64,000 nt of DNA from the NCBI GenBank assembly GCA_963748805.1, contig CAVVLH010000006.1:36186-100185 (forward strand), written 5' to 3'. Below the pieces are notes generated by a model, which did no database searches, was not told where the DNA came from, and saw only the letters and a program-made list of their open reading frames with translations. The stretch comes from an uncultured Alphaproteobacteria bacterium. Its GTDB lineage: Bacteria; Pseudomonadota; Alphaproteobacteria; Rhizobiales; Xanthobacteraceae. This document shows, one piece after another, positions 41,687-54,519 of the stretch. How positions within the stretch are numbered: the first letter of the stretch is position 1; every line of letters begins with the position of its first letter. The translations under genes were made by a program, and so were the position numbers.

Positions 41687-43769
41687 TCAGTGCCACATGT
41701 GCTCGAATTGATGATGGTGACCGAAGCCGTGATCGGAGAACTCGTTGCCTCCGGTCTCCACGATGGGCGGAGTTCCATTGCTCCCCTGGCCCGCCGGCGC
41801 CGCCGTTGCCGGCACCACATGCCCCACCGTTACCTGCACCGTTGCCACCAGCCGCGCTGCCGGAGTTACCGCTGATCGCCGCCGTCAACGTCGCGACGGC
41901 CGCGCTGATCGCGCTCGAATGACCGCCCTCCAGGGCCTGCACCAGACTGGCGATATCGCCGGCGATCGCACTCGAAAGCGCTGACGTCGAAGTACCCCCT
42001 GAAATCGGTCCCGGAACCGGAGCCGCCAGAACCGGAGCCGCCGGCCGTGTGACCGGCATTCGGATCCGGATTCGAGACCCCAAAACCGTTATTGGCCAAT
42101 CCGTCGACCGGATTTGCCGTTGGGTTATCGTTACCATCAACCGCGCCGGAAACGGGAACGGTGGTGCCCGCGGTAGCGGCGCCTGTCGTGGTGGCACCCG
42201 CGACAGTCGTCGCAGTGCCCACGAATGAGCCGCCTCCGGTCGGCAAATTGTTGCCTGAGACGTCATTGGCGTCGGCGACAAATCCAACTCCCGCCGCGAC
42301 CAGCTGAGCTGCGTTGGTTGCGTTCAGACCGTTGGCCTCGACGCTTTGCAGCGCGGACACCGCATTCGCGGTATCCGTCTTGAGCGTGCCAGATAGCAAT
42401 TCATTGTCGAACCGGTCACCGAAGACCCCGCCTTGCGAACCGGTGAAGCTCGCCCCAAACTCGTTGTAATTATTGATCTGAGTGATCAGCGACTGGACCT
42501 CCGAAGCGGTCGGCTGAACCGTCCCGTTGGCAATACCGCCAAGCGTCGTGTTCAACTGATTGGCTTCCGCAATGAACTGTGACCAGAAATTGGTTTGAGC
42601 CTGGTTGTCCTGAAATTGCAGAATGGTGCCGCCGTGGTCGTTCACCCCGCCGATGCCGTTGAGATAGCCGGGCATCTCACCAAATCCGCCCGTACTCGCG
42701 CCGAACGTCTGATTTGGCTGCGCGCCGTTGTTGGCAACCGAAACATCGCCGGCCGCGGTCGCCAAGGCCGCATCGTTATTCACGATATCGACGATGTCGA
42801 GAATGTTGTCATTCGTCGATCGGGCGGCGTCGTTGGGATTGGTCGCATACATCGGGTCGAACTTGTTGATCTGAAGTTCAACCTGATTGAGCGCCGTTTC
42901 GAGATGAATCGTCGTCAGGGCCTGTTCCTGCTGAGCCGTCAGCGCCTGCCCTTGCGGAGACATGCCCGCCTGCTCATTCGCCTCGATGCCTGCGAGTGCC
43001 GTTGGACTGTTGAGGATGTTTGTAAGGCCCGTCACCACCGCCTGCATGTCGGTGTTGAACTCGGTGAGATTGTTCGCATTCAATCCCCCCACCTCGAGAT
43101 CGTGGGCAGCGTTGAAGACGGAACCGATCTGCGCAAGCGTCGGAGGCGCCGCGGCTGAACCCTCGGCCGATGCGGAGACTTCGCGGCTGAATCGCTTCCC
43201 GTCGGCAGCGCCTGGAACCCTACATTGGTAAAGCCGGTCCCGCTTTGATACGCCGCCCCGTTCAACGCGCTTGCCAGCGTGGCATCACCGTTCACCTCCG
43301 ACAGAATTTGCTGTTGAGTAAGCGCGATCGTTCCTTGCGCCGCTACCTCCGCCGCGCTGTTGCCAACCGACAGCGGCGCCTCATGCTGTAGCGTCGCCAA
43401 CTGACCCTGAATCGTCTGAAGTTCGGTAATCAAGGCCGGATCTGTAATCGCCTGACCGCCAACGGTAATTGCATTCGGATTCGCCAGCATCGCGCTGACA
43501 TCAGCCTGCACGGCGTTGACGTCTTGCAGATACATCGGCTCGTAGGGCTGTTCGTTGCTGCCGCTTGCCGCCTCGATCGCCGTCGAACCTGTCCAGAGCC
43601 CGCCATCGGAAAGGCGGACCGCGTCGTTGAAGACCGCGCCGGCCTGCGCCAGATCGGTCGACGTGTTCAAAGCGCTTTCAATCGTCGTCGCGTAGTTGTT
43701 GCCGACCTGGGTGATCGATACCCCATCCAGCCCTTCGGTATCCCGGATCGTCGTTGGAACTGTGATCAT
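41687..43769 (-). pseudogene. Large acidic helical/Gly-rich protein, probable T1SS substrate; three single-base indels (~43182, ~42002, ~41789)
   Basis: GAGAGG RBS; four consecutive frame segments join into one ~690-aa ORF ending DHGFGHHHQFEHMWH-TGA at 41687; no signal peptide; very few Lys/Arg. Confidence 0.75.
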
Positions 43770-44200: not shown

Positions 44201-46117
44201 TTACTGCTCGACGAAAGCCCGGCGCATCTGATCGGCGATCGGCTTGAACAGATAGCTCATCATCGTCCTGCTCCGCGTCTGCATGAAAACTTCGGCAGGC
44301 ATTCCAGGCACGAGCTGTTGACCGGCGAGTCGCCGGCGTTCCTGGTCCGACAGGACAACTCTCACCGTAAAGTAAGGCGCGTTGGTCTGCTGGTCACGGC
44401 TCGTGTCGGCCGAAACATAGGAGACGGAGCCGGTGAGTTGCGGCGTCACGCGCTGATTGAAAGCCGAAAACCGGACAAAGGCCGATTGGCCGGTGCGCAC
44501 CTGGTCGATGTCCTTGGGCTGCAACCGCGCCTCGATCTGCAAGTCTTCGGTATCAGGAACGATTTCCATGATGGTATCGCCGGCGCGGATGACCCCGCCG
44601 ATGGTGTGCGCGGCAAGCTGGTGAACGATACCGGCCACCGGCGCGTGGATCTCGATGCGGTCGAGCAGGTCGCGCGCCGAAACGCTGCGTTCGACAAGTT
44701 CGGCCTCCTTGCCCTGGGCTTCGCCAAGCTCTTTCACGACATCGGTGCGAAAATCCTGATCGGCGCGGACCATCTGCAACTGAGTCTCGCCGATCTTCGA
44801 TTTCGTCTCGGCGATTGACGAGACGATCTGCCCGCGCTCGCCGTCGATCCGCGCGGATTCCCGCTGCAACGTCGTCAGCCGGGTCAGCGGAACCAGGTGC
44901 TTGTCATACAGCTCCTGCACGCCGGTCAGCTCGCCCGCAATCAGCTCCAGTTGCCTGGCCTTGGAATCAAGCTGGGCCTGTAAGCCCACGATCTCCTCGG
45001 TCAATTGCGCAACCTTGCCCTGCAACAGATCTTTCTGGCTTTGGCGCGCGGTCAGACGAGCCTTGAACAGCGAATCTTCCGACGCCAGCAGGCTTTTCAC
45101 TGTGTCGTTGCCCGATCGCGATGCGAGCCCCGCGGGAACTTCTATGCGAGCAAGACCATCGCGCTCGGCCACGAGACGAGCGATCTTCGCCCCCAACTCA
45201 TCGAGCTGCTTGCTCACCATTTGCAAGCCGGCACGCGCCTGGGTCGCGTCCAGCCGCAACAGCAGCTCGCCCGGCTGCACCCGGCTGCCATCCTGCACAC
45301 CGATTTCGGCGACAATGCCTCCGGTCGGATGCTGGATATTCTTGACATTCGATTGCACGACGAGATTGCCGGGAACGACGACCGCGCCTGCGAGCGGCAC
45401 GAACGCCGCCCACCCTCCACCCAGAATCCCGCCGACGAGGAGAACCCGCAGGCCGACGCGCAGTTCGTGTTCGAACGCCCATCGAACGCCCGTCTGCAAG
45501 CTGTCATCGGCCGCATCCGCAGGAGGCAAAGCGCCGTCACGATCGAGAATAAAGGCGGCGCCGGCCACCAGACCGTTACGGCACTGGCCGATCAGCTCCA
45601 TAACCGCCGCGTTGGGCTTCGGCGGGGCGGCGGATGCGACAATGCGCTCGCCTTCAATTTCGGACGGAGGCGAATCCTCGTGCGCGGTCATGTCTGGCGC
45701 GGGATGACGCAGATCCATATACACCGGATCGCTCTGGAAGATCGGCGGACTCTGCCCGTGCAGCGGCGGCACGGCCGACTCGACCGACGGATTGCTGCGG
45801 CTATCAGCCTGGACGGGAGGATTGATGCCAAACGACTTCAGGCAGATGTCAATCGCAAGCTTGACCGTGCTCTTTGGCTTTCGCCTCGGACGCAGCGGCT
45901 GTGGTTTGCGAGGCGCTTGACGTTTCCGCGCCTCACCGCGCCCGGACGGGCCGGCTGGACGCCGACCGTCGCCGCGCTCACCGTCGAGCGCCTGGCGCAA
46001 ACGCTGAAGTTCGAGGATGAGCGCCTCCCCCTGTGGTCCGACGCGGTCCACACCCGGCTCGCCACTCCCGTTCCGATCAGATCCGTCGAGATGTCGATGA
46101 TCCCTTGAGTACGGCAT
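44201..46117 (-). CDS. HlyD/PrtE family type I secretion membrane fusion protein with a long N-terminal extension
   Basis: GAVV.PG....SNVK.IQHPTGG.V, LLRLD.T, I.AP.AG.V, LVPGMPAEVF..T..RT..SY; ATG 2 bp after the ATPase stop. Confidence 0.92.
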   Translation of the reverse strand: MPYSRDHRHLDGSDRNGSGEPGVDRVGPQGEALILELQRLRQALDGERGDGRRPAGPSGRGEARKRQAPRKPQPLRPRRKPKSTVKLAIDICLKSFGINPPVQADSRSNPSVESAVPPLHGQSPPIFQSDPVYMDLRHPAPDMTAHEDSPPSEIEGERIVASAAPPKPNAAVMELIGQCRNGLVAGAAFILDRDGALPPADAADDSLQTGVRWAFEHELRVGLRVLLVGGILGGGWAAFVPLAGAVVVPGNLVVQSNVKNIQHPTGGIVAEIGVQDGSRVQPGELLLRLDATQARAGLQMVSKQLDELGAKIARLVAERDGLARIEVPAGLASRSGNDTVKSLLASEDSLFKARLTARQSQKDLLQGKVAQLTEEIVGLQAQLDSKARQLELIAGELTGVQELYDKHLVPLTRLTTLQRESARIDGERGQIVSSIAETKSKIGETQLQMVRADQDFRTDVVKELGEAQGKEAELVERSVSARDLLDRIEIHAPVAGIVHQLAAHTIGGVIRAGDTIMEIVPDTEDLQIEARLQPKDIDQVRTGQSAFVRFSAFNQRVTPQLTGSVSYVSADTSRDQQTNAPYFTVRVVLSDQERRRLAGQQLVPGMPAEVFMQTRSRTMMSYLFKPIADQMRRAFVEQ

Positions 46118-46119
46118 GA

Positions 46120-47940
46120 CTAGACACGCTCTGGCGCTGTGGCGTGGCGCGGAGCGGGGCCAGGCGCGGTGCGCGGCTGCGGCCGGACTGGCGCACTTTG
46201 CGTCCTGGAGCCACCGACGCGGGCAAACACCTCCTGGCACGAACCGAAGGCGATCGACTTTCCTTCGTAAAGCACGAGAGCCATGTCCAAGGCGGCAATC
46301 ACGCTTGGACGATGCGATATCACGATCACGATGCTCTTGTTCTGCCGCAGGATCTGAATGGCGCGGCTCAACGCGTTCTCGCCGTCGGTATCCAGATTGG
46401 CGTTGGGCTCGTCGAGCACGACCAGAAACGGATCGCCATAGACCGCGCGTGCCAGTCCTACTCTTTGCCGCTGGCCCGCCGACAGCGAAGAGCCGCTCTG
46501 ACCGATCTGGGTCGAATAGCCGTTGGGCAACCGCACGATGAGATCGTGCACGCCCGAGATCTGCGCCGCCTTTATAATCGCCTCTGAAGTCGCGCCCTCG
46601 TCGAAACGACAGATATTTTCGGCGATCGTACCGTCAAACAGAGCGACGTCTTGCGGCAAATAGCCGATATGCCGTCCGAGATCCTCGCTTCGCCACTGAT
46701 CGATCGCCGCGCCATCAAGTCGAACCGCCCCGCCCTTGGCCGGCCAAATTCCGACCAGCGCCTTGGAGAGCGAAGTCTTGCCGGATGCGCTGGCTCCGAG
46801 CAGGGCCAATCCCATGCCGGCCTTGAGCGAGAAGCTGACGCTCGAGACGATGGGCATGTCGGTAGCGGGTGCGGTAACCGTGAGCTGCTGGACCGCGAGT
46901 TCGCGGCACGGACGCGCCAGATGAACTGCCGGAACAGGAGGTCTCGCCGTTACCTTGCAAACCTCGCGCAGCCGCGCGATGCCCTGGCGTGCGGCGACAA
47001 GCTGCTTCCAGCTGGATAATGCGACCTCGACCGGCGCCAACGCCCGTCCCATCATGATCGACGAAGCGATCATGATGCCGCCGGAGGCGCTGTCGGTGAC
47101 CACCAGATACGCCCCCATCCCCAACATGCCGGATTGCAGGACATAACGCAGCACCTTGGCACCCGAGCCTAGATTGGCGAAGAGGTCGCTGGCGCGCATG
47201 TTTTCCCGCAGGTATCGCTCGTTCGATTGCGACCACCGCGCCTTGAATCGATCCGTCATGCCGAGCGCACGAATCACCTCGGCATTGCGCTGGATGGTGC
47301 CCAAGAGCTCCTGCCGCTGAGCGCTGGATTCTGTCGCGGACTTCGCCGCATCGCGCGACAGGCGCTCGGTCAGGAACATCATGGCCACGATGGACGCGGT
47401 CCCGATCAGCGCGGTGACGCCGATCGCGGGATGAAACAGAAACAGTCCAATCAGGAAAATGGGAATCCAGGGCATGTCCAGGAACGCCGTCGGCCCCATG
47501 CCCGACATGAAGGCACGAACCTGCTCGAGATCACGCGACGGCTGCTGCATCGCCGACGGTTTCACGCCGCGAAGCGGCAGCGTCACCAACGCATTGTGGA
47601 TCGCCTCCTGAAGGCCGACATCGAAAAGCGTCGCCACACGGCACAACATGCGTGATCGCAGCGCTTCGAAATATCCCTGTATCAGGTAGGCCAGCAGCAC
47701 CATCAGCGAGAGACCCGACAGTGTTGCGAGATTCCGGCTCGGAATGACGCGGTCGTAGACCTGGAGCATGTAGAGAGAGCCGGACAGCATCAACAGATTG
47801 ATCACGCCGCTGAACGCGGCGATGCCGGTCATTCGTCGCGCGCTCTCCCGCAAACCGTGCAAGACCGGATCACCCGCCGCCGAGGCAGCCAGCAGACTGC
47901 GCGGGCCGAACCGTAACGTCTGTCGCAAACGATCCTGCAC
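46120..47940 (-). CDS. Type I secretion ABC permease/ATPase (PrtD/AprD type, no C39 domain)
   Basis: INLLML.GSLYMLQVYDRV, FLD.PW.P.F, GASASGKT, LSAGQRQR, VLDEPNANLD; GTG start with AAGGAG RBS. Confidence 0.94.
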   Translation of the reverse strand: MQDRLRQTLRFGPRSLLAASAAGDPVLHGLRESARRMTGIAAFSGVINLLMLSGSLYMLQVYDRVIPSRNLATLSGLSLMVLLAYLIQGYFEALRSRMLCRVATLFDVGLQEAIHNALVTLPLRGVKPSAMQQPSRDLEQVRAFMSGMGPTAFLDMPWIPIFLIGLFLFHPAIGVTALIGTASIVAMMFLTERLSRDAAKSATESSAQRQELLGTIQRNAEVIRALGMTDRFKARWSQSNERYLRENMRASDLFANLGSGAKVLRYVLQSGMLGMGAYLVVTDSASGGIMIASSIMMGRALAPVEVALSSWKQLVAARQGIARLREVCKVTARPPVPAVHLARPCRELAVQQLTVTAPATDMPIVSSVSFSLKAGMGLALLGASASGKTSLSKALVGIWPAKGGAVRLDGAAIDQWRSEDLGRHIGYLPQDVALFDGTIAENICRFDEGATSEAIIKAAQISGVHDLIVRLPNGYSTQIGQSGSSLSAGQRQRVGLARAVYGDPFLVVLDEPNANLDTDGENALSRAIQILRQNKSIVIVISHRPSVIAALDMALVLYEGKSIAFGSCQEVFARVGGSRTQSAPVRPQPRTAPGPAPRHATAPERV

Positions 47941-48062
47941 GGTGTTCCCCTCTCCTTCGTCTCCTCGTCGTGCGCCAGTCCAATTTTCTTTTGGCGACAG
48001 ATGCTGTCCATTTTCCGGCAGCAATTGGACCGTAGACAGTCGCTGCTGCGGCTTTCTGGCCG

Positions 48063-48231
48063 CGAGTGCCCACTTTCCGAAGTTCGTGCTCCATTGCGGC
48101 ACCCACCGTCACGAACTTCGGAAAGTCATGGGCACTCGTAAGCTTATTGATTCTAGTACCGCTTCATCGATCTGAAGTCCTTGATCGAATTCGCGGCTGG
48201 TGGTGCAGGGACTTCAGATCGGCGGTACTAG
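48063..48231. repeat. CTAG-bounded twin-hairpin composite element (hairpins 48063-48138 and 48153-48231)
   Basis: cgagtgccc-actttccgaagttcgtg/cacgaacttcggaaagt-cat-gggcactcg, a 14-bp core with GATTC, then ctagtaccgc..gatctgaagtcc/ggacttcagatc-ggcggtactag. Confidence 0.78.
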
Positions 48232-48857
48232 GATCGATCAAGCGGACCAACTCGAAGAGTTCACTTGTGGACACGCGCGGCTTTGCGCGGCACGAAGCTG
48301 CGGCAGGTGCGCCCAAACATGATGCAGCAAAGCTGCCGCGTGCCACGATCGAGGCCATAGAATCGTCCGGCTATCACCTTGCTTCAGCGCGCATTGGCCG
48401 CTGTCTCGGCCGATTGACGCCACGAAACTGAATAAACCTTTGTGTCGTTCCGCCGGCGGCGTTGATCGATTTCTCCCAGGCCGACGACGATACGGACAAC
48501 AAGGAAAAACAAGACAAGGAAAACAAAATGGAGCGCTTGGCGTACGAAGCGAATGCATCAGTTAGTATGAGGATCAGCAGGTAACCAACCACGCGCAGAT
48601 AGGCTCGTCGTTCGCAGCGGGGCGTCGCTGTCCGGACGATTCGACTGCGCGTCGACGAAAAGGAGACGATTTTATTCGCCGGCCAGGCGATCTCTGATTT
48701 TGGGGAACGGACAGTTGAGTAAGCGTCGCTATGGAACCGCAAAGCCGCGCCCGGAAAACTCCGGTGCAAGATCGCGCTGCGCACTTGCCCGGTGCGCGAA
48801 GGCCGCGCGCCGCAGCGGAATCGAAACTCGCCGCATTCATGAAAAGGGAGCGCGCGA

Positions 48858-50669
48858 GTGAGACAACGCAGGACCGACTACGGCACAATCTTCTTGCACT
48901 GGCTGCTTGTCGCAGCCATCGGGGCCGCTTTCGTCAGCGGGCTTCGTATCGCAACGGAGGCGCCAAGCCGAACGTGGATCAATCTGTTCGACGTGCTGTT
49001 GCCGCGGGCCAATGTCTGGACCCTGCACATCGAAGCGGCGGTGGCACTGGTCGCGATTGCGGTCGCCTATACGGTCTATTTGACCCGATCCGGCCTGAGC
49101 CGCCGCGTGCAACTGGACAAGATTCGCCTGCGTGCCCTGATAGGACGAAAGCAGGGCCGGCTTGGTGCGGTCAGCGTCCTGCTTTCGTGGTTCTTCTTCC
49201 TCACCATGGCAATCCTGATCGTCAGCGGCGGCCTTCTCTATTTTGGCCTGCTCGCGGGCCAAAGTGTTGCGGCCGCACATTGGTGGGCGAGCTGGGCAAT
49301 TCCGGTCTTCACTTGCCTGCATATCCTTGTCCAGATTCTGATCGGCGGGACGTCGCAGCTTCTTCGTATTTTTCGTCCCGGACCCCTGCCGCCCCCTCCG
49401 CCTCGCCTTGATGCCGTGGAGCTGCTCACACTGCTCGCCGAACAGTCCGGGCAACCGGCAGCACAACCGCGGCAGCAGCCGCAGCGAAAGCCGAAAAGTG
49501 GCAGCCCGGCAAGGCAGCGCGACGTCACCCTGCAAGCGAACCCTCTCATCGTTGCAACGTCGGTCGCGATCCTGGGCACCTGGGTCATGATCGCGACGGA
49601 CTGGCTGATGGTCGACGGCTTGCGCATCCACCGCGTCTCCAGCGCGCAGGCTCCGATTCTTGACGGCGACACCTCCGATCCGGTCTGGCGCAACATCCAG
49701 CCGTTCTCCGTGATGACCAATCAGGGCGACAATTTCGACGGCAAGGGCGAAACCAGGATCAACATTCGCGCGGTGCATGACGGCGTCTGGGCGTATTTCC
49801 TGTTCGACTGGGAGGATCCGACGCGGTCGTTGAAGCAACTGCCGCTCATCAAGCGGGCTGACGGCTGGCAACTGCTGCATGACGGCTATGAGAGGGGCGA
49901 CGAGCACGCCTTCAATGAAGACAAGTTCGCTGTCCTGTTTACGACGCTGGACCTGACGCTGGCGGGCGACCACACCTTCCATGCGGGTCCGCAGCCGATC
50001 GACGGTGCGCCCCAGACCATGACCGGAAGAGGCTTGCACTACACATCCGCTGCCGGAGTTTACGCCGACGTGTGGCAATGGAAGGCCACCAGCACCGGCC
50101 CAAGCGGCTGGATGGACGATGATCATTTCGGTCCGCCGCTCGAGCCTACCCCCGCGCAATTACAAAACGCCGCTCCCTACCGGGGCGGGTTCGAGCCCGA
50201 CCCTGGCACCGCGAACTATTCCAGCAATTTCGACGCGACGCTGGATCCGGCAGACCGCGATCAAGTGGTGAGGCCGCGGCGTCTGCCGAAAGATCTCGCC
50301 ACGACGTCAGCGGCCATGGGCGCCATCGATCTCGATCCGGAGGTCGGCGAGAACGACGGCGCGCGCTGGTTCATGACGGAGGTCGATTCCGTTCCTTATA
50401 CGAAAGAGATGGACCGTCAGATCCCCGTCGGCACCGTCATTCCCGGGGTCATCATCTCCGGGGATTTTTCAGGCGACCGCGCCGACGTTCGATGCGCCGG
50501 GCGATGGGCCTCCGGACATTGGTCGCTCGAGGTCGCGCGGCGCCTCGATACGCACAGCCAATTCGACGTGCCGATCAAGACGGGCGTCTTCATGCGCGTC
50601 GCGGCATTCGACCACAGCCAGATCGCACATACGCGGCATGTCCGGCCCATTCGTATTGAGGTGGAGTAA
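48858..50669 (+). CDS. Di-heme cytochrome b fused to an ethylbenzene-dehydrogenase-gamma/DOMON-like heme-binding domain
   Basis: Four TM His (FLHW, TLHI, AAHW, CLHI); a fifth TM; then P.LDG...DP.W, F.WEDPT, EDKFAV, D.WQWKA, WSLEVARRL.T. Confidence 0.82.
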   Translation: MRQRRTDYGTIFLHWLLVAAIGAAFVSGLRIATEAPSRTWINLFDVLLPRANVWTLHIEAAVALVAIAVAYTVYLTRSGLSRRVQLDKIRLRALIGRKQGRLGAVSVLLSWFFFLTMAILIVSGGLLYFGLLAGQSVAAAHWWASWAIPVFTCLHILVQILIGGTSQLLRIFRPGPLPPPPPRLDAVELLTLLAEQSGQPAAQPRQQPQRKPKSGSPARQRDVTLQANPLIVATSVAILGTWVMIATDWLMVDGLRIHRVSSAQAPILDGDTSDPVWRNIQPFSVMTNQGDNFDGKGETRINIRAVHDGVWAYFLFDWEDPTRSLKQLPLIKRADGWQLLHDGYERGDEHAFNEDKFAVLFTTLDLTLAGDHTFHAGPQPIDGAPQTMTGRGLHYTSAAGVYADVWQWKATSTGPSGWMDDDHFGPPLEPTPAQLQNAAPYRGGFEPDPGTANYSSNFDATLDPADRDQVVRPRRLPKDLATTSAAMGAIDLDPEVGENDGARWFMTEVDSVPYTKEMDRQIPVGTVIPGVIISGDFSGDRADVRCAGRWASGHWSLEVARRLDTHSQFDVPIKTGVFMRVAAFDHSQIAHTRHVRPIRIEVE

Positions 50670-51703
50670 TGACAAAGATTTGCAAGGTGACCTTCAACAA
50701 AGAGACCTTTCTGATGAATTGCGGTGATCTCCTGCTCGACGGCGCGCTGATGAGCGGCGTCGATCTGCCCTACGATTGCCGCAGCGGCATTTGCGGGTCC
50801 TGCCGGGTGCGTCTTGAGGAAGGCAAGGTATTCGGCGGCACCGATGAGAGCAGCGACATGATCCACGCCTGTCAAGCGCGGGTCGTCTCCGATCTCAAAG
50901 TGGTCGCCGAGCCTACACCAGATCCGGTTTCGATACCGGCGCGGGTGTCCGAAATGGTCCGGCTCGCGCCCGATGTCATCGGCGTCGGCCTCGAGCTCCA
51001 GCAGCCATTCCGGCATCTGCCGGGCCAATATTGCAAATTGCAATTCCGCGGTTTCGCGGAACGATGCTATAGCGCGACCTACCCCCTCGAAGGCGCCCCG
51101 AATAATCGCCGGCTGCATTTTCACATCCGCCGCCTGCCGGACGGCGCCGTATCATCGGCGCTCGGAAGCAAGATCTGTGTTGGCCATCGCGTCAGGCTGT
51201 CGGGCCCGTTCGGCAGTGCATTCCATCGGCGCGAACATCATGGTCGCATGGTCCTGGTCGCCAGCGGGACGGGGTTCGCACCGATGTGGGCGATCGCGGC
51301 CGCCGCCATCACCGAGCGGCCGCAGCGCGAGCTGACCTTTGTGGTCGCCACCCGAAAGCTGAAGTCGTTCTACATGCACAGCGCGTTGTGCCGGCTGGCA
51401 CGATTTCCCAATGTCACCATCGTTCCCGTCGTATCGGAACCGCAGAGCGTCTCGTTTGCCATCAGAAGCGGACGACCGGTCGACTACCTGCCTGAACTGT
51501 CGCCGGAAGACATCGTCTATACGGCGGGTGCGCCCGCCATGACCGACGCTGTGGCAGAGATCGCGAAGGCGGCGGGCGCCAGATGCTACACGGACCCGTT
51601 CTCGCCTAACGATCAAGGCGGAGATTCCTCCGGCCTGATGGCGCGTTTCGTCGGCTGGCTCGACGGTTCCAGAAAGAGCCCCGAAGTTCTGCACGCCGCT
51701 TGA
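50669..51703 (+). CDS. 2Fe-2S ferredoxin:FAD/NAD(P)H oxidoreductase
   Basis: CRSGICGSC...ACQ cluster motif, RCYS (FAD), GPFG, ASGTGFAP; TAATG overlap with the upstream gene. Confidence 0.92.
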   Translation: MTKICKVTFNKETFLMNCGDLLLDGALMSGVDLPYDCRSGICGSCRVRLEEGKVFGGTDESSDMIHACQARVVSDLKVVAEPTPDPVSIPARVSEMVRLAPDVIGVGLELQQPFRHLPGQYCKLQFRGFAERCYSATYPLEGAPNNRRLHFHIRRLPDGAVSSALGSKICVGHRVRLSGPFGSAFHRREHHGRMVLVASGTGFAPMWAIAAAAITERPQRELTFVVATRKLKSFYMHSALCRLARFPNVTIVPVVSEPQSVSFAIRSGRPVDYLPELSPEDIVYTAGAPAMTDAVAEIAKAAGARCYTDPFSPNDQGGDSSGLMARFVGWLDGSRKSPEVLHAA

Positions 51704-51736
51704 GAACCGCTGCGCCCGCCGGCGCAGCGTTTCGAT

Positions 51737-52603
51737 CTAGTTGCTCAGTCGTTCAATCACCAAATCCAGCAGCGCCCGCAATCGCGCGAGCTTCTTCAGG
51801 TCGCGATGGTAGCCGACATAGGTATCGCGCCGGGGCGGCTCTTCCCCAAGATCGATCCGCCTTACGCCCAGAAGCGCATCCCCTATCGGCCGCGGAAGCA
51901 CGGCGACGCCCGCCCCGCATGCGCACATCCGCGCCTGGACGTCGCGATTGTTGCTGCGCGAGACCACATGGCCGTTGGGCAAGACCTTCCGAAGCCAGAC
52001 CGCGTCTGGCATGCCGGCGAAATTGACATCGAGGGTGATGAGCGGCATTCCCCCGCCGTCGCCGGGATGTGGCGCCTCGATATCCGATTTGAGGTAGGCC
52101 CCGTAAGGAATGGTCATCAAGCGCCGCGATATCACCTCCGGCTCATCGAACGGCCGGATCCTGAACACCATCTCGGCTTCCCGCCGGGGCAGGCTGTAGA
52201 GAATCTCACTGGTCAGCAGTTCGACAACGACGCGCGGATGAAGTTTGGAAAATTCGGCGAACACCGGCGCAAGCATGTGAGCGCCAAACCAGTCGGACGA
52301 CGAAATGCGCAGCAACCCTTCCAGTTGCTGGTCTTCGCCGGCGAGCCTTCGCTGGAAGGCAAGGACTTCTTCCTCGATCCGCTCCGCATGCGAGAGCACG
52401 GCCTCACCTTCGTCGGTCAGGACGAAGCCATCGCCGGTACGCTGGAACAGGGTTTGGCCGACCGCCTCCTCCAGGGCCCTCAGCCGTCGGCCCATGGTCG
52501 GCTGACTTTGGCCTAACTTCTGGGCTGCGCCACTGAGCGTCCCTTCACGGGCGACAGCGAGGAAGATACGAAGATCGCTCCATTCCACCGAATGGTCCCT
52601 CAT
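51737..52603 (-). CDS. LysR family transcriptional regulator
   Basis: WSDLRIFLAVAREGTLSGAA..LG.SQPT.GRRL..LE...G..LF.R. Confidence 0.95.
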   Translation of the reverse strand: MRDHSVEWSDLRIFLAVAREGTLSGAAQKLGQSQPTMGRRLRALEEAVGQTLFQRTGDGFVLTDEGEAVLSHAERIEEEVLAFQRRLAGEDQQLEGLLRISSSDWFGAHMLAPVFAEFSKLHPRVVVELLTSEILYSLPRREAEMVFRIRPFDEPEVISRRLMTIPYGAYLKSDIEAPHPGDGGGMPLITLDVNFAGMPDAVWLRKVLPNGHVVSRSNNRDVQARMCACGAGVAVLPRPIGDALLGVRRIDLGEEPPRRDTYVGYHRDLKKLARLRALLDLVIERLSN

Positions 52604-52691
52604 TCAATTTTGTCTGGAGTCCGTGCAGCTTTGTGAGTTTCCATGGACGCCTGCCGCATCCATCTTGTGACCCTGAAGAAGGACAACAAAG

Positions 52692-53705
52692 ATGATGACC
52701 TCAACTCCTACCATGCAGGCGGCCGTTCTCACCAGCCACGGATCGCCCTTCACGATTGGCCCGATTTCCCGCCCCAAGGCCGAGCAGGGTCAGGTTCTCG
52801 TTCGGATCAAGGCCAGCGCCGTCAATCCGCTCGATCTCAAGATCCATCACGGCGAGGCGGCTCATGCGCGTCATCCGCTGCCGGCGGTCCTTGGCATCGA
52901 CCTCGCCGGTGTCGTCGAAAACGTCGGACCGGGCGTCACAGGTTTCCGTCGGGGCGACGAGGTGTTCGGCATGACCGGAGGGGTCGGCGGCCTGCAAGGC
53001 TCGCTGGCCGAGTTTGCCGCGGTCGATGCCGATCTGCTGGCACTGAAGCCGGCCAACCTCACCATGCGTGAGGCTGCGGCCCTTCCGCTGATATTCATCA
53101 CCGCATGGGAGGGACTTGTCGATCGCGCGGGCGTCGGACCAAGGCAAAAGGTGCTGATCCAGGGCGGCGGAGGCGGCGTGGGCCATATCGCGGTCCAGCT
53201 CGCCCGGGCGTTCGGCGCGGAAGTCTTCGCGACTGGATCGGCCAGGGACAAGGCTTACATCGAGCAACTCGGTGCGACCTTCATCGATTACAACGCCGCG
53301 CCGGTGGCCGATTATGTCGCCAAGCATAGCGGTGGCCGCGGCTTCGACATCGTCTACGACACCGTCGGCGGTGCTGTGCTGGACGCGTCATTCAACGCGG
53401 TGGCGCGCTTCGGACATGTGGTCAGCGCGCTCGGCTGGGGCACGCACGCGCTGGCCCCGCTATCGTTCCGCGCCGCGAGCTATTCGGGCATCTTTACATT
53501 GCTGCCGATGCTGACGGGCGAAGGCCGGGCTCATCATGGCGAGATCCTGCGTGAGGCGACCAGGCTCGTCGAGGCGGGAAAGATCGTACCGAAGCTCGAT
53601 CCCCGCCGGTTCACTTTTGAGACGATCGCGGATGCCTATGACGCCGTCAGGACCCGGAAGGCCACTGGCAAGATTGTCGTCGATGTCGAAACCTTGAAGG
53701 CGTAA
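52692..53705 (+). CDS. MDR superfamily NAD(P)H quinone oxidoreductase-like protein
   Basis: VNP.D.K, LG.D.AG.V..VG.GV..F..GDEVFG, GGGGGVG, GKIVV. Confidence 0.92.
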   Translation: MMTSTPTMQAAVLTSHGSPFTIGPISRPKAEQGQVLVRIKASAVNPLDLKIHHGEAAHARHPLPAVLGIDLAGVVENVGPGVTGFRRGDEVFGMTGGVGGLQGSLAEFAAVDADLLALKPANLTMREAAALPLIFITAWEGLVDRAGVGPRQKVLIQGGGGGVGHIAVQLARAFGAEVFATGSARDKAYIEQLGATFIDYNAAPVADYVAKHSGGRGFDIVYDTVGGAVLDASFNAVARFGHVVSALGWGTHALAPLSFRAASYSGIFTLLPMLTGEGRAHHGEILREATRLVEAGKIVPKLDPRRFTFETIADAYDAVRTRKATGKIVVDVETLKA

Positions 53706-53850: not shown

Positions 53851-54519
53851 GTGATGAAGCGGTTTAGCCGGGTATTTTTGACCATCGTTGCACTGGCGTT
53901 GCCGTCCGCAGCATTTGCCGAGGAATGGCCGGGCAGTTTCCTCGCGCGTGTCGAGGCCATGGCGTTGATCGAAACGCTGAATGCCGAACTGCTCTCGAAT
54001 CCCAGCGCCACCCTGACGCTGGAGCGCTGGTGCGGCGCCCACCGGCTGGCGGCAGAGGCAAAGGTTTCAGCGCACCTTGTGCGCGGAGAAGATCGGCAGA
54101 TTGCGCCGGAAGATCGCCAGCGGTTCGCGATTGCCGCTGACGAGCCTGTACGTTACCGGCGCGTGCAATTGTTCTGCGGCGACAGGCTGCTTTCCGAGGC
54201 CGACAATTGGTATGTGCCGAGCCGCCTCACGCCCGAGATGAACCGCCTGCTTGACGAAACCGACACGCCCTTCGGACGCGCGGTGAAGGATCTTGAATTC
54301 CAGCGCCAGACGCTCAAGGTCACCCCGCTCTGGCAGCCACTGCCCGAAGGATGGGAGCTTCAGGCGGCACAAAAGGACGGGACGAGCGCTCTGCCGATCC
54401 CTGACCATGTGCTGGAGCACCGCGCCATTCTTTTTACAAAAGCACGGGTGCCGTTCTCGATCGTGGTCGAGACCTATACGAAGCACATGTTCGATTTTCC
54501 GCTCAACGCCGCGAAGTAA
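53851..54519 (+). CDS. Secreted hypothetical protein, possible chorismate-lyase-like fold
   Basis: Signal peptide; SAT..LE.WC, YR.VQL.CGD.LLSEA.NWY, TDTPFG.AV pattern (fold call from recall). Confidence 0.6.
   Translation: MMKRFSRVFLTIVALALPSAAFAEEWPGSFLARVEAMALIETLNAELLSNPSATLTLERWCGAHRLAAEAKVSAHLVRGEDRQIAPEDRQRFAIAADEPVRYRRVQLFCGDRLLSEADNWYVPSRLTPEMNRLLDETDTPFGRAVKDLEFQRQTLKVTPLWQPLPEGWELQAAQKDGTSALPIPDHVLEHRAILFTKARVPFSIVVETYTKHMFDFPLNAAK

Follow-up and report, generated by a model that had tools for sequence, protein, structure and literature searches.

The question raised by this locus is where the electrons go when a cytochrome b carries a haem-type domain on its periplasmic end and its gene is overlapped by that of a cytoplasmic NAD(P)H reductase. 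To our knowledge, few bacterial routes take electrons from cytoplasmic NAD(P)H across the inner membrane while bypassing the quinone pool. The main examples of such quinone-independent export are MsrQ-Fre and the bacterial NOX homologues. In the window, i.e. the whole stretch of 64,000 nucleotides that was analysed, we identified a pair of Bradyrhizobium genes, A and B (Table 1), whose products probably form a dedicated two-protein line exporting electrons across the inner membrane.

Table 1. Features of the locus, in positions of the window; residues are those of the gene A product.
Feature	Position	Strand	Basis
ABC transporter of a type I secretion system, in divergent orientation to gene A	46120..48102	-	neighbour in 41/41 Bradyrhizobium loci
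HlyD-family membrane fusion protein, same type I secretion system	44201..46240	-	neighbour comparison
Fragmented gene, acidic secreted protein with His-rich tail, candidate secretion cargo	41687..43769	-	
AAGGGAG, Shine-Dalgarno-like, 7 nt 5′ of the gene A GTG start	48844..48850	+	read from sequence
Gene A, 603-aa fusion of di-haem cytochrome b and periplasmic EB_dh/DOMON domain	48858..50669	+	ORF, Pfam PF01292 + PF09459, AlphaFold
Gene A, four-helix di-haem b module, residues 7-171	48876..49370	+	hydropathy, His positions, FdnI/HyaC alignment, Foldseek
Gene A, cytoplasmic TM2-TM3 loop, residues 72-104	49071..49169	+	loop comparison over 74 representatives, tree
Gene A, Pro/Gln/Arg-rich cytoplasmic linker, residues 174-226, low model confidence	49377..49535	+	pLDDT 55-80
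Gene A, fifth transmembrane helix, residues 227-250, leads the chain to the periplasm	49536..49607	+	hydropathy; model helix 229-250
Gene A, periplasmic EB_dh/DOMON-fold domain, residues 252-603	49611..50666	+	Pfam, Foldseek, ligand-region alignments
Gene B, 344-aa soluble 2Fe-2S/FAD/NAD(P)H reductase	50669..51703	+	ORF, Pfam, motifs

The AlphaFold model of the gene A product (pLDDT 92.8, pTM 0.89) covers two Pfam domains, Ni_hydr_CYTB (PF01292, residues 7-171, E 1.9e-11, 44.5 bits against a cut-off of 30.1) and EB_dh (PF09459, residues 274-596, E 3.5e-35, 122.6 bits against a cut-off of 33.3), and the latter is the only EB_dh domain counted in the genome. The sequence-only reading had noticed four transmembrane histidines in a cytochrome-b pattern, a Pro/Gln linker and a fifth transmembrane helix, all of which we recovered. 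The histidines are His14, His57, His141 and His155, one each in TM1 and TM2 and two in TM4. Across 74 diverse homologues they show no or almost no variation, and they align with the four ligand histidines of FdnI (1kqf_C; the alignment included also HyaC, 4gd3_A), which we take to be H18, H57, H155 and H169 in the E. coli protein. The target-normalised TM-score of the cytochrome module against FdnI 1kqf_C was 0.55 in Foldseek. Judging from the aligned sequences, H14 and H155 would hold the haem on the cytoplasmic side and H57 and H141 the one on the periplasmic side. The linker (residues 174-226) reads 'PGPLPPPPPRLD...QPAAQPRQQPQRKPKSGSPARQR', and the TM2-TM3 loop has a motif core GLSRRVQLDKIRLRAL...GRLGA at 79-104. 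Basic residues concentrate in three segments (N-terminus, TM2-3 loop and TM4-5 linker), so these parts are predicted to lie inside and the EB_dh domain outside; the predicted topology thus leaves the loops facing the reductase in the cytoplasm and the EB_dh domain in the periplasm. The Pfam scan gave no match to the six-helix Ferric_reduct domain in A or B, and no eukaryotic b561 core was found in gene A, where only the prokaryotic PF01292 was recovered and the core has four helices. No genes for a periplasmic hydrogenase or formate dehydrogenase were found within about 10 kb of gene A or at related loci, and genes for molybdoenzyme subunits were likewise absent within about 10 kb on either side of A/B, as had been remarked from the sequence.

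Regarding the C-terminal domain, its earlier description as EbdC-like agrees with both structure and profile searches, in which the haem proteins NxrC and EbdC are the top matches (Foldseek: NxrC 7b04_C, E 4.8e-10; EbdC 2ivf_C, E 1.4e-6, target-normalised TM-score 0.67). Foldseek returned also CBM9 modules (1i82, E 2.2e-4; 7nwo), ranked below these two. The EB_dh/DOMON fold also includes sugar-binding CBM9 modules. A RAVHDG...W.D block is common to the domain and EbdC-type proteins, and the WxWKA strand downstream of the EbdC Met loop is retained. In the ligand-region alignments, neither of the EbdC axial ligands Met108 and Lys201 is present in the gene A domain; the Met region holds H375 and H394 and the Lys region H591 and H594. 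H394 and H591 are invariant across the 74 homologues, in which many Trp are conserved too, and H375 aligns with the His of the CX3CH motif of c-type relatives. The placement of the ligand loops differs between two alignments, so that the sequence routes concur on the regions and not on the exact residues. Conserved histidines stand in the places from which the Met/Lys ligation is lost, so that a haem in this domain is an inferred one, and the conserved H375, H394, H591 and H594 are its candidate ligands. In the same phylum, fusions of EB_dh domains with NapC/NirT and with di-haem cytochrome c exist as well, and EB_dh is thus used repeatedly as the periplasmic terminus of electron-input modules anchored in the membrane. 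EbdC-type domains had been described as normally taking electrons from DMSO-reductase-family enzymes, but these fusions show that they are not restricted to them, and the same holds for FoxC of Sulfolobales, which has an extracytoplasmic EB_dh-like haem b domain and a membrane partner without a molybdoenzyme (PMC13741234).

Gene B starts at the last base of the TAA stop of gene A (one-base overlap, TAATG) and, as recognised from the sequence, encodes a reductase of the ferredoxin-NAD(P)H type. Its domains follow in the order Fer2 (N-terminal, plant-type 2Fe-2S), FAD_binding_6 and NAD_binding_1 (FNR-like), and Cys37/42/45/68, RCYS (residues 132-135) and GTGFAP correspond to the four-Cys, RxYS and GxGxxP pattern. 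Neither a signal peptide nor a transmembrane helix was found in gene B. The top NCBIfam match was BenC with 113 bits against a cut-off of 430, and the protein falls far under every equivalog cut-off. Domain order and cofactor motifs are those of BenC/AntC/MmoC-type reductases, but gene B lacks an oxygenase partner, as neither an oxygenase nor another usual reductase client lies beside it in any locus examined, and it belongs to a group of its own that travels with gene A. The B proteins of A-linked loci are mutually related (33-64 % identity) and retain the Cys ligands and RxYS; those that are complete also have CxxDPF at the C-terminal end, ahead of a short tail.

Homologues of gene A amounted to 1057 cluster representatives at E<=1e-3, and the family at E<=1e-30 comprised 246 clusters at 50 % identity. 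It is a moderately large, sparsely distributed and wholly uncharacterised family, and our literature search found no study of the cytochrome b–EB_dh fusion. In Bradyrhizobium, B lies directly 3′ of A in 41 of 41 loci (55-97 % identity). The pair was found also in about seven lineages beyond these main loci, down to 36 % identity: in a paralogous Bradyrhizobium clade (L057, 42 %), in another family of the same order (G020/L050, 46 %) and in the metagenome lineages P0125, P0142, P0149 and P0160 (36-45 %), which were sampled via contigs encoding individual gene A representatives. P0135 probably carries the pair as well, with a 344-aa gene overlapping the end of A. Across these distant lineages the reading frames of A and B usually overlap or abut.

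We compared 74 representatives of the gene A family by a tree and by their loops. Six of the seven reductase-coupled A proteins in the tree fall into one clade (support 100/100, 21 of the 74 representatives), and the seventh, P0142, is placed in a small second group. All seven possess a cytoplasmic TM2-3 loop of 33-34 residues, which is absent from the six members with other partners; because it is conserved only in the reductase-coupled members, this loop may be the docking surface for gene B. About half to two thirds of the family have no adjacent reductase gene, and such members pair with genes for an Lcl_C protein and with purple-acid-phosphatase-like genes. A gene A-type protein can therefore do without B and presumably interacts with the quinone pool instead. 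No natural fusion of A and the reductase was found among the longer homologues (P0140, P0156, P0197, P0199, P0217 and P0252), which carry in addition DUF2336, Lcl_C or an N-terminal extension without assignment. The reductase-coupled lineages have no conserved acceptor gene in common: L050 and L052 encode, upstream of A, proteins without mutual relationship, and the neighbours of A in L053, L056 and L083 are regulators or products without Pfam match, so the loci offer no third gene as a conserved candidate acceptor.

An outward wire of two proteins, as suggested by the sequence-only reading, is the interpretation best supported by the A–B pairing, the predicted topology and the conserved transmembrane ligands. 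Taking the cofactors to be bound and B to dock on A, cytoplasmic B would oxidise NAD(P)H at its FAD and pass single electrons to its 2Fe-2S cluster. The next carriers would be the two haems b of A, first the one on the cytoplasmic side (H14/H155) and then, across the membrane, that of H57/H141, followed by a third, non-covalent haem in the periplasmic EB_dh/DOMON domain, probably ligated by two histidines, H375 or H394 on one side and H591 or H594 on the other. The third haem would deliver the electrons to some periplasmic or secreted acceptor, for which chelated ferric or cupric ions, an enzyme of the periplasm, O2 and the neighbouring secreted protein are candidates. With NAD(P)H at about -320 mV, outward flow is downhill and aided by the membrane potential. 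Electrons in FdnI/HyaC-type cytochromes usually move inward, to quinone. This normal direction, the reductase-free members, the missing Met108/Lys201, the fold kinship with CBM9 and the want of a conserved acceptor gene in the reductase-coupled lineages count against an export line.

The same observations can be arranged differently. Gene A may be a quinone-linked respiratory module after the model of FdnI, HyaC or NapC, connecting the quinone pool and a periplasmic partner via three haems, with B auxiliary (e.g. keeping the haems reduced) or unrelated. Homology of the transmembrane part to the quinone-reducing FdnI and HyaC, the many representatives without adjacent reductase and the existence of NapC/NirT–EB_dh fusions speak for such a module. 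However, the strict adjacency of A and B extends over at least eight lineages and to identities as low as 36 %, with frames usually overlapping or abutting, the reductase-coupled A proteins cluster in the tree with a cytoplasmic loop of their own, and no periplasmic dehydrogenase or reductase is conserved nearby. We regard this arrangement as unlikely. The pair could also be an analogue of NADPH oxidases, its outer haem reducing O2 to periplasmic superoxide for signalling, for defence or for feeding a peroxide-using enzyme. The path from NAD(P)H via flavin and two transmembrane haems to the outside follows the logic of NOX, whose bis-His haems reduce O2 by an outer-sphere route, and the predicted bis-His haems of A could do the same. 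However, nothing in the sequence points specifically to O2, the location of the third haem within a protein domain is more suggestive of a protein or a chelate as partner, and neither peroxidase nor superoxide dismutase is conserved at the examined loci, which makes an oxidase very improbable. Equally slim are the chances that the C-terminal domain is a haem-free binder of carbohydrate or another ligand, of the DOMON/CBM9 type, which would make A a two-haem protein anchored to, or sensing, an envelope glycan. The CBM9 hits in Foldseek, the loss of the EbdC Met/Lys ligands and the many conserved Trp would suit a binder, but the best structural and profile matches are NxrC and EbdC, invariant His stand in both ligand regions with H375 aligned to the CX3CH His, and the domain is fused to a di-haem cytochrome served by a reductase.

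The surroundings of the pair in Bradyrhizobium allow a further interpretation, in which A/B are the redox arm of a five-gene module completed by the type I secretion system and the acidic cargo with its His tail, and possibly reduce metal bound or delivered by the cargo. The ABC and HlyD genes are divergent neighbours of A in all 41 loci. Cargo-like genes were found in 16 of 121 Bradyrhizobium genomes, all 16 among the 47 genomes with gene A, so that within the genus they were seen only in A-carrying genomes, mostly within a few kb of A; where both mapped to a single contig, they were always neighbours. The cargo gene immediately precedes A, in the same orientation, in two loci (L058 and L059), and its product matches the known cargo locus at 42223-43137 only; the 755 bp of intergenic DNA preceding A contain no remains of the gene seen there in L058/L059. 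Against such a module, the link is seen in one genus only, and no secretion system or cargo was found near the reductase-coupled pairs of L050, L052, L053, L056, L057 and L083. Moreover, type I cargo bypasses the periplasm, where the output domain of A resides, and the pattern would also arise from co-inheritance within a single genomic island. We consider the module unlikely. The Bradyrhizobium iron control element (TTTAGAANNNTTCTAAA, <=3 mismatches) was not found in the window and the scan of 48000-52000 for sigma-70 promoters found nothing, so regulation provides no clue for A/B. A broader scheme, to which we give a similarly low probability, sees the cytochrome b–EB_dh protein as a periplasmic one-electron reductase of general use that has changed both its input and its output in the course of evolution, and includes a five-gene reductive metal-acquisition module in Bradyrhizobium. 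One clade would be wired to NAD(P)H via its own 2Fe-2S flavoprotein, and the rest, paired with Lcl_C and purple-acid-phosphatase-like proteins, would presumably be wired to quinol. The Bradyrhizobium version would serve the adjacent secreted acidic protein with its His/Trp tail, e.g. by reducing captured metal.

The export line can be set beside several known systems. The gamma subunits of E. coli formate dehydrogenase-N and hydrogenase-1, FdnI and HyaC, are homologous four-helix di-haem cytochromes b with aligned ligands and the N-terminus inside, as in A. However, their electron donor is a periplasmic Fe-S subunit and their acceptor is quinone on the cytoplasmic side, whereas A is without such a partner and adds the fifth helix, the haem-type domain and the linked gene of a cytoplasmic reductase. 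EbdC, NxrC, SerC and DdhC, the haem b gamma subunits of the type II DMSO-reductase family, have the fold and the Pfam EB_dh domain in common with gene A, but they are soluble and sit on a molybdoenzyme, whereas the domain of A is membrane-tethered, about 110 residues longer and has His for Met/Lys. The Met/Lys ligation of EbdC-type gamma subunits is associated with high potential (PMC8840923). FoxC/FoxD are archaeal, not fused to an FdnI-type cytochrome and without an NAD(P)H reductase; they are thought to run in the oxidising direction, and Met/Lys-type ligation is reported for FoxC.

In MsrQ-Fre of E. coli and in NOX/ferric reductases, as proposed for A/B, electrons pass from a flavin reductase in the cytoplasm to a stack of two b haems in the membrane and on to the outside. 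Their transmembrane family is unrelated to that of A (six-helix Ferric_reduct versus Ni_hydr_CYTB), they lack both a 2Fe-2S step and a third haem domain, and their known acceptors are MsrP, O2 and Fe3+. Eukaryotic CYBDOM proteins resemble A in that a transmembrane di-haem b is joined to an extracytoplasmic haem domain of the DOMON superfamily, and some, e.g. CRR and HYP1 of Arabidopsis, act as ferric reductases (PMC10784552, PMC10784544). The likeness to b561-DOMON proteins pointed out from the sequence stands as an analogy only and does not extend to homology of the whole proteins, as the transmembrane part of A is of the prokaryotic FdnI/HyaC family. The CYBDOM b561 is a separate six-helix family, fed by ascorbate and with another domain order, and is thus convergent with A and not orthologous.

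If confirmed, A/B would be a third route of this kind besides MsrQ-Fre and the bacterial NOX homologues, built of other parts: a flavoprotein with a 2Fe-2S cluster, an FdnI-type cytochrome that apparently works backwards and a haem domain of DOMON fold. These parts would mirror the eukaryotic b561-DOMON ferric reductases by convergence. Should the interpretation of the Bradyrhizobium cargo be true, the genus would have a new five-gene module for reductive metal acquisition. For the family as a whole, the split of gene A proteins into reductase-coupled and reductase-free members is a natural experiment on the exchange of electron input modules.

Gene A, annotated publicly just as an 'ethylbenzene dehydrogenase-related protein', matched the Pfam families Ni_hydr_CYTB (residues 7-171, 44.5 bits vs cut-off 30.1) and EB_dh (residues 274-596, 122.6 bits vs cut-off 33.3), and no NCBIfam model. 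Hydropathy revealed four helices, a linker rich in Pro, Gln and Arg (residues 174-226) and, at 227-250, a further helix, the fifth, with His14, His57, His141 and His155 sitting in TM1, TM2 and TM4. The gene B protein contains Fer2, FAD_binding_6 and NAD_binding_1 domains (Pfam) and the motifs Cys37/42/45/68, RCYS and GTGFAP, and its sequence has neither a signal peptide nor a TM segment. Its nearest NCBIfam models are BenC, AntC and MmoC, all far under their cut-offs (113 bits vs 430). These features bear out the sequence-only reading, which had described four TM histidines in a cytochrome-b pattern, a Pro/Gln linker with a fifth TM, an EbdC-like domain and a reductase overlapping gene A at TAATG. 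The absence of molybdoenzyme subunits nearby was also correctly noted, as we found no molybdopterin or Fe-S subunit within ~10 kb of the pair. The EB_dh domain of gene A is the only one in the whole genome (5.76 Mb, 128 contigs, ~91 % complete).

Coordinates of genes A and B, their neighbours and the related loci (L, related locus; G, genome; C, contig)
Feature	Sequence	Position	Strand	Details
Fragmented gene for acidic protein (candidate cargo)	window	41687-43769		beyond HlyD
HlyD protein	window	44201-46240		upstream of gene A, divergent
Type I secretion ABC transporter	window	46120-48102		upstream of gene A, divergent
Intergenic region, ABC gene to gene A	window	48103-48857		755 bp
Shine-Dalgarno-like motif AAGGGAG	window			7 nt upstream of gene A start
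Gene A	window	48858-50669	+	603 aa, GTG start
Gene B	window	50669-51703	+	344 aa, starts on last base of gene A TAA stop
LysR regulator and quinone-oxidoreductase-like dehydrogenase	window	51737-53705		downstream of gene B, LysR convergent
Exported 222-aa protein	window	53851-54519		downstream of gene B
Two-component system	window			downstream of gene B
Reductase-free branch	L051	5893-12067
Reductase-free branch	L079	6001-11144
Reductase-free branch	L054	1417-5765
Reductase-free branch	L081	4027-7785
Reductase-free branch	L082	1915-4166
EB_dh fusion/c-type	L073	637-2454
EB_dh fusion/c-type	L076	1357-2940
EB_dh fusion/c-type	L060, L062, L065, L069, L070
A homologue with N-terminal extension	L050	7078-9324
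Cargo-like open frame	G497:C22	574806-578801		1614 aa

The AlphaFold2 model of gene A, built with 74 diverse homologues as input, reached pLDDT 92.8 and pTM 0.89 and was weak in the linker only. Foldseek matched it in the PDB to NxrC (7b04_C, E 4.8e-10, TM-score on target 0.47), EbdC (2ivf_C, E 1.4e-6, 0.67), CBM9 (1i82, E 2.2e-4, 0.60) and FdnI (1kqf_C, E 1.4e-2, 0.55). The family profile matches FdnI and HyaC, and in the profile alignment H14, H57, H141 and H155 correspond to H18, H57, H155 and H169 of FdnI. In the FdnI structure we take the periplasmic haem to be bound by H57/H155 and the cytoplasmic one by H18/H169; therefore, gene A would pair H57/H141 at the outer and H14/H155 at the inner haem. 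The basic residues, clustered at the N-terminus, the TM2-3 loop and the TM4-5 linker, fit a predicted topology with the N-terminus inside and the EB_dh domain in the periplasm.

The axial haem ligands of EbdC are Met and Lys (PMC8840923); the alignments put the Met at position 108, within 'TMGATGRPVNAWYWKA', and the Lys at position 201, within 'AFAVWSGGNAERSGRKSYS'. Both are lost in the gene A family. The WxWKA strand is kept ('DVWQWKAT'), and the invariant H394 ('GRGLHYT') lies 11-12 residues ahead of it, the EbdC Met being 10 ahead; hhalign placed the EbdC Met loop slightly differently, between H394 and the near-invariant H375. The segment 'FDHSQIAHTRHVRP' holds the invariant H591 and the near-invariant H594, 7 and 10 residues after the strand-end aromatic, respectively, where the Lys of EbdC and NxrC comes after 11. 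From these patterns we infer that the domain retains the haem site of its relatives and binds haem b non-covalently, most likely through two histidines, with a candidate pair among the conserved ones. Many long EB_dh proteins of the phylum possess a CX3CH motif (GCWLSCH, GCQAACH, GCNAACH), whose His aligns with H375; in the same alignment a Lys in 'KY' stands opposite H394 and a His at or near H591. Some of them have an additional CXXCH motif, and these motifs suggest c-type versions of the domain. Fusions of EB_dh to a NapC/NirT tetrahaem module or a di-haem cytochrome c are also found in the phylum.

Gene B directly follows gene A in all 41 Bradyrhizobium loci (55-97 % identity to A). It likewise follows the A homologue in a second Bradyrhizobium clade (L057, 42 %), in a genome from another family of the same order (G020/L050, 46 %) and in the metagenome lineages P0125/L052, P0142/L053, P0160/L056 and P0149/L083 (36-45 %; P numbers are cluster representatives). 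P0135 is probably reductase-coupled as well, with a 344-aa gene overlapping the end of A. The frames overlap or abut in most paired loci, and the B proteins are interrelated (33-64 % identity) and have the cofactor motifs in common; those that are complete finish with CxxDPF and a short tail. Of the seven A proteins with a known reductase partner, six grouped in one clade of 21 (support 100/100) in the maximum-likelihood tree built from 74 representatives; the seventh, P0142, joined a small second group. The cytoplasmic TM2-3 loop measures 33-34 residues in all seven, mostly with the pattern (A/S)GLxxRxxLDxxRLxxL...RWxA, from which P0142 and L050 deviate; it is shorter or unrelated in the six members whose known partners are others. 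We propose this loop as a putative docking surface for the ferredoxin domain of gene B.

Considering sequence, predicted fold and gene context, we regard a complete path from NAD(P)H to the periplasm as reasonably probable. Within gene B, in the cytoplasm, electrons would pass from NAD(P)H through FAD to the 2Fe-2S centre, then to haem b H14/H155 and haem b H57/H141 of gene A, and from there to the DOMON-domain haem in the periplasm and an acceptor. For electrons leaving NAD(P)H, the outward direction is exergonic and helped by the membrane potential, whereas the reverse is not. The predicted bis-His haem would have a much lower potential than the Met/Lys haem of EbdC, which is of high potential (PMC8840923), and would thus suit a donor role. 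A quinone-linked module with gene B as an auxiliary competes with this path, as does a NOX-like O2 reductase. The pair resembles NOX, MsrQ-Fre and the eukaryotic CYBDOM proteins in working mode, by analogy, but it belongs to none of them and its TM domain is unrelated. A haem-free, sugar-binding EB_dh domain of CBM9-like or lectin-like type agrees with the CBM9 fold match and is unlikely given the conserved histidines. The component families (Ni_hydr_CYTB, EB_dh and BenC-like reductases) are already known, and we found no published study of the gene A fusion family in the literature searched.

The gene A family is present in 47 of 121 genomes of the genus. Genes resembling the cargo, the candidate substrate of the neighbouring secretion system, occur in 16 (E<=1e-20), all among these 47, and where cargo and gene A matches share a contig, no more than a few kb separate them. 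This confinement to gene A carriers would favour a functional five-gene module of A/B, secretion system and cargo, which nevertheless has a low probability, as no secretion system or cargo was found near the reductase-coupled loci outside Bradyrhizobium. The association is thus real in the genus, though the sharing of one island may be all that it reflects. The cargo gene of L058 and L059 sits immediately 5' of A and points the same way. In the window this position is taken by the 755-bp intergenic region, in which we found neither a convincing ORF nor a match to a sigma-70 promoter or an iron control element. The L059 cargo has 528 aa, starting with MARFTHKGHHHH... and ending with ...AHHLHHTWG. 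The open frame in the Bradyrhizobium genome G497, a few kb from gene A, contains three cargo-like copies, apparently a tandem triplication of the secreted protein. On the other side, the LysR and quinone-oxidoreductase-like genes have no match in L001 and L020, the two closest relatives, where the 222-aa gene comes ~600 bp after gene B; this genome seems to have gained them by a recent insertion.

The whole family is of moderate size, with 1057 clusters at 50 % identity (E<=1e-3), or 246 at E<=1e-30, and is sparse: among 401 genomes sampled phylum-wide, 5 contain it. The named homologues and named related loci are all Bradyrhizobium. An N-terminal extension of 170-250 residues precedes the cytochrome b part in P0140, P0199, L050, P0156 and P0197; it is a DUF2336 domain in the first two, and could be either a genuine cytoplasmic domain or an artefact of start codon or gene merging. 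The other 53 tree representatives include members without an adjoining reductase. In P0217 the A homologue is fused to an Lcl_C (PF07603) protein, and in G119/L051, P0173/L079-L080, P0216 and P0236/L082 the gene after it encodes one. Neighbours of the A homologue in L051, L054, L079 and L081 include purple-acid-phosphatase-like genes (Pur_ac_phosph_N, in part combined with Metallophos), with PhoD as an additional neighbour in L051. This reductase-free branch may be redox-linked to Fe-centre phosphatases of the periplasm, and its members presumably draw on the quinone pool, by analogy with FdnI-type cytochromes. Since reductase-free members exist, the membrane protein would be a reusable conduit, with the NAD(P)H input specific to certain lineages.
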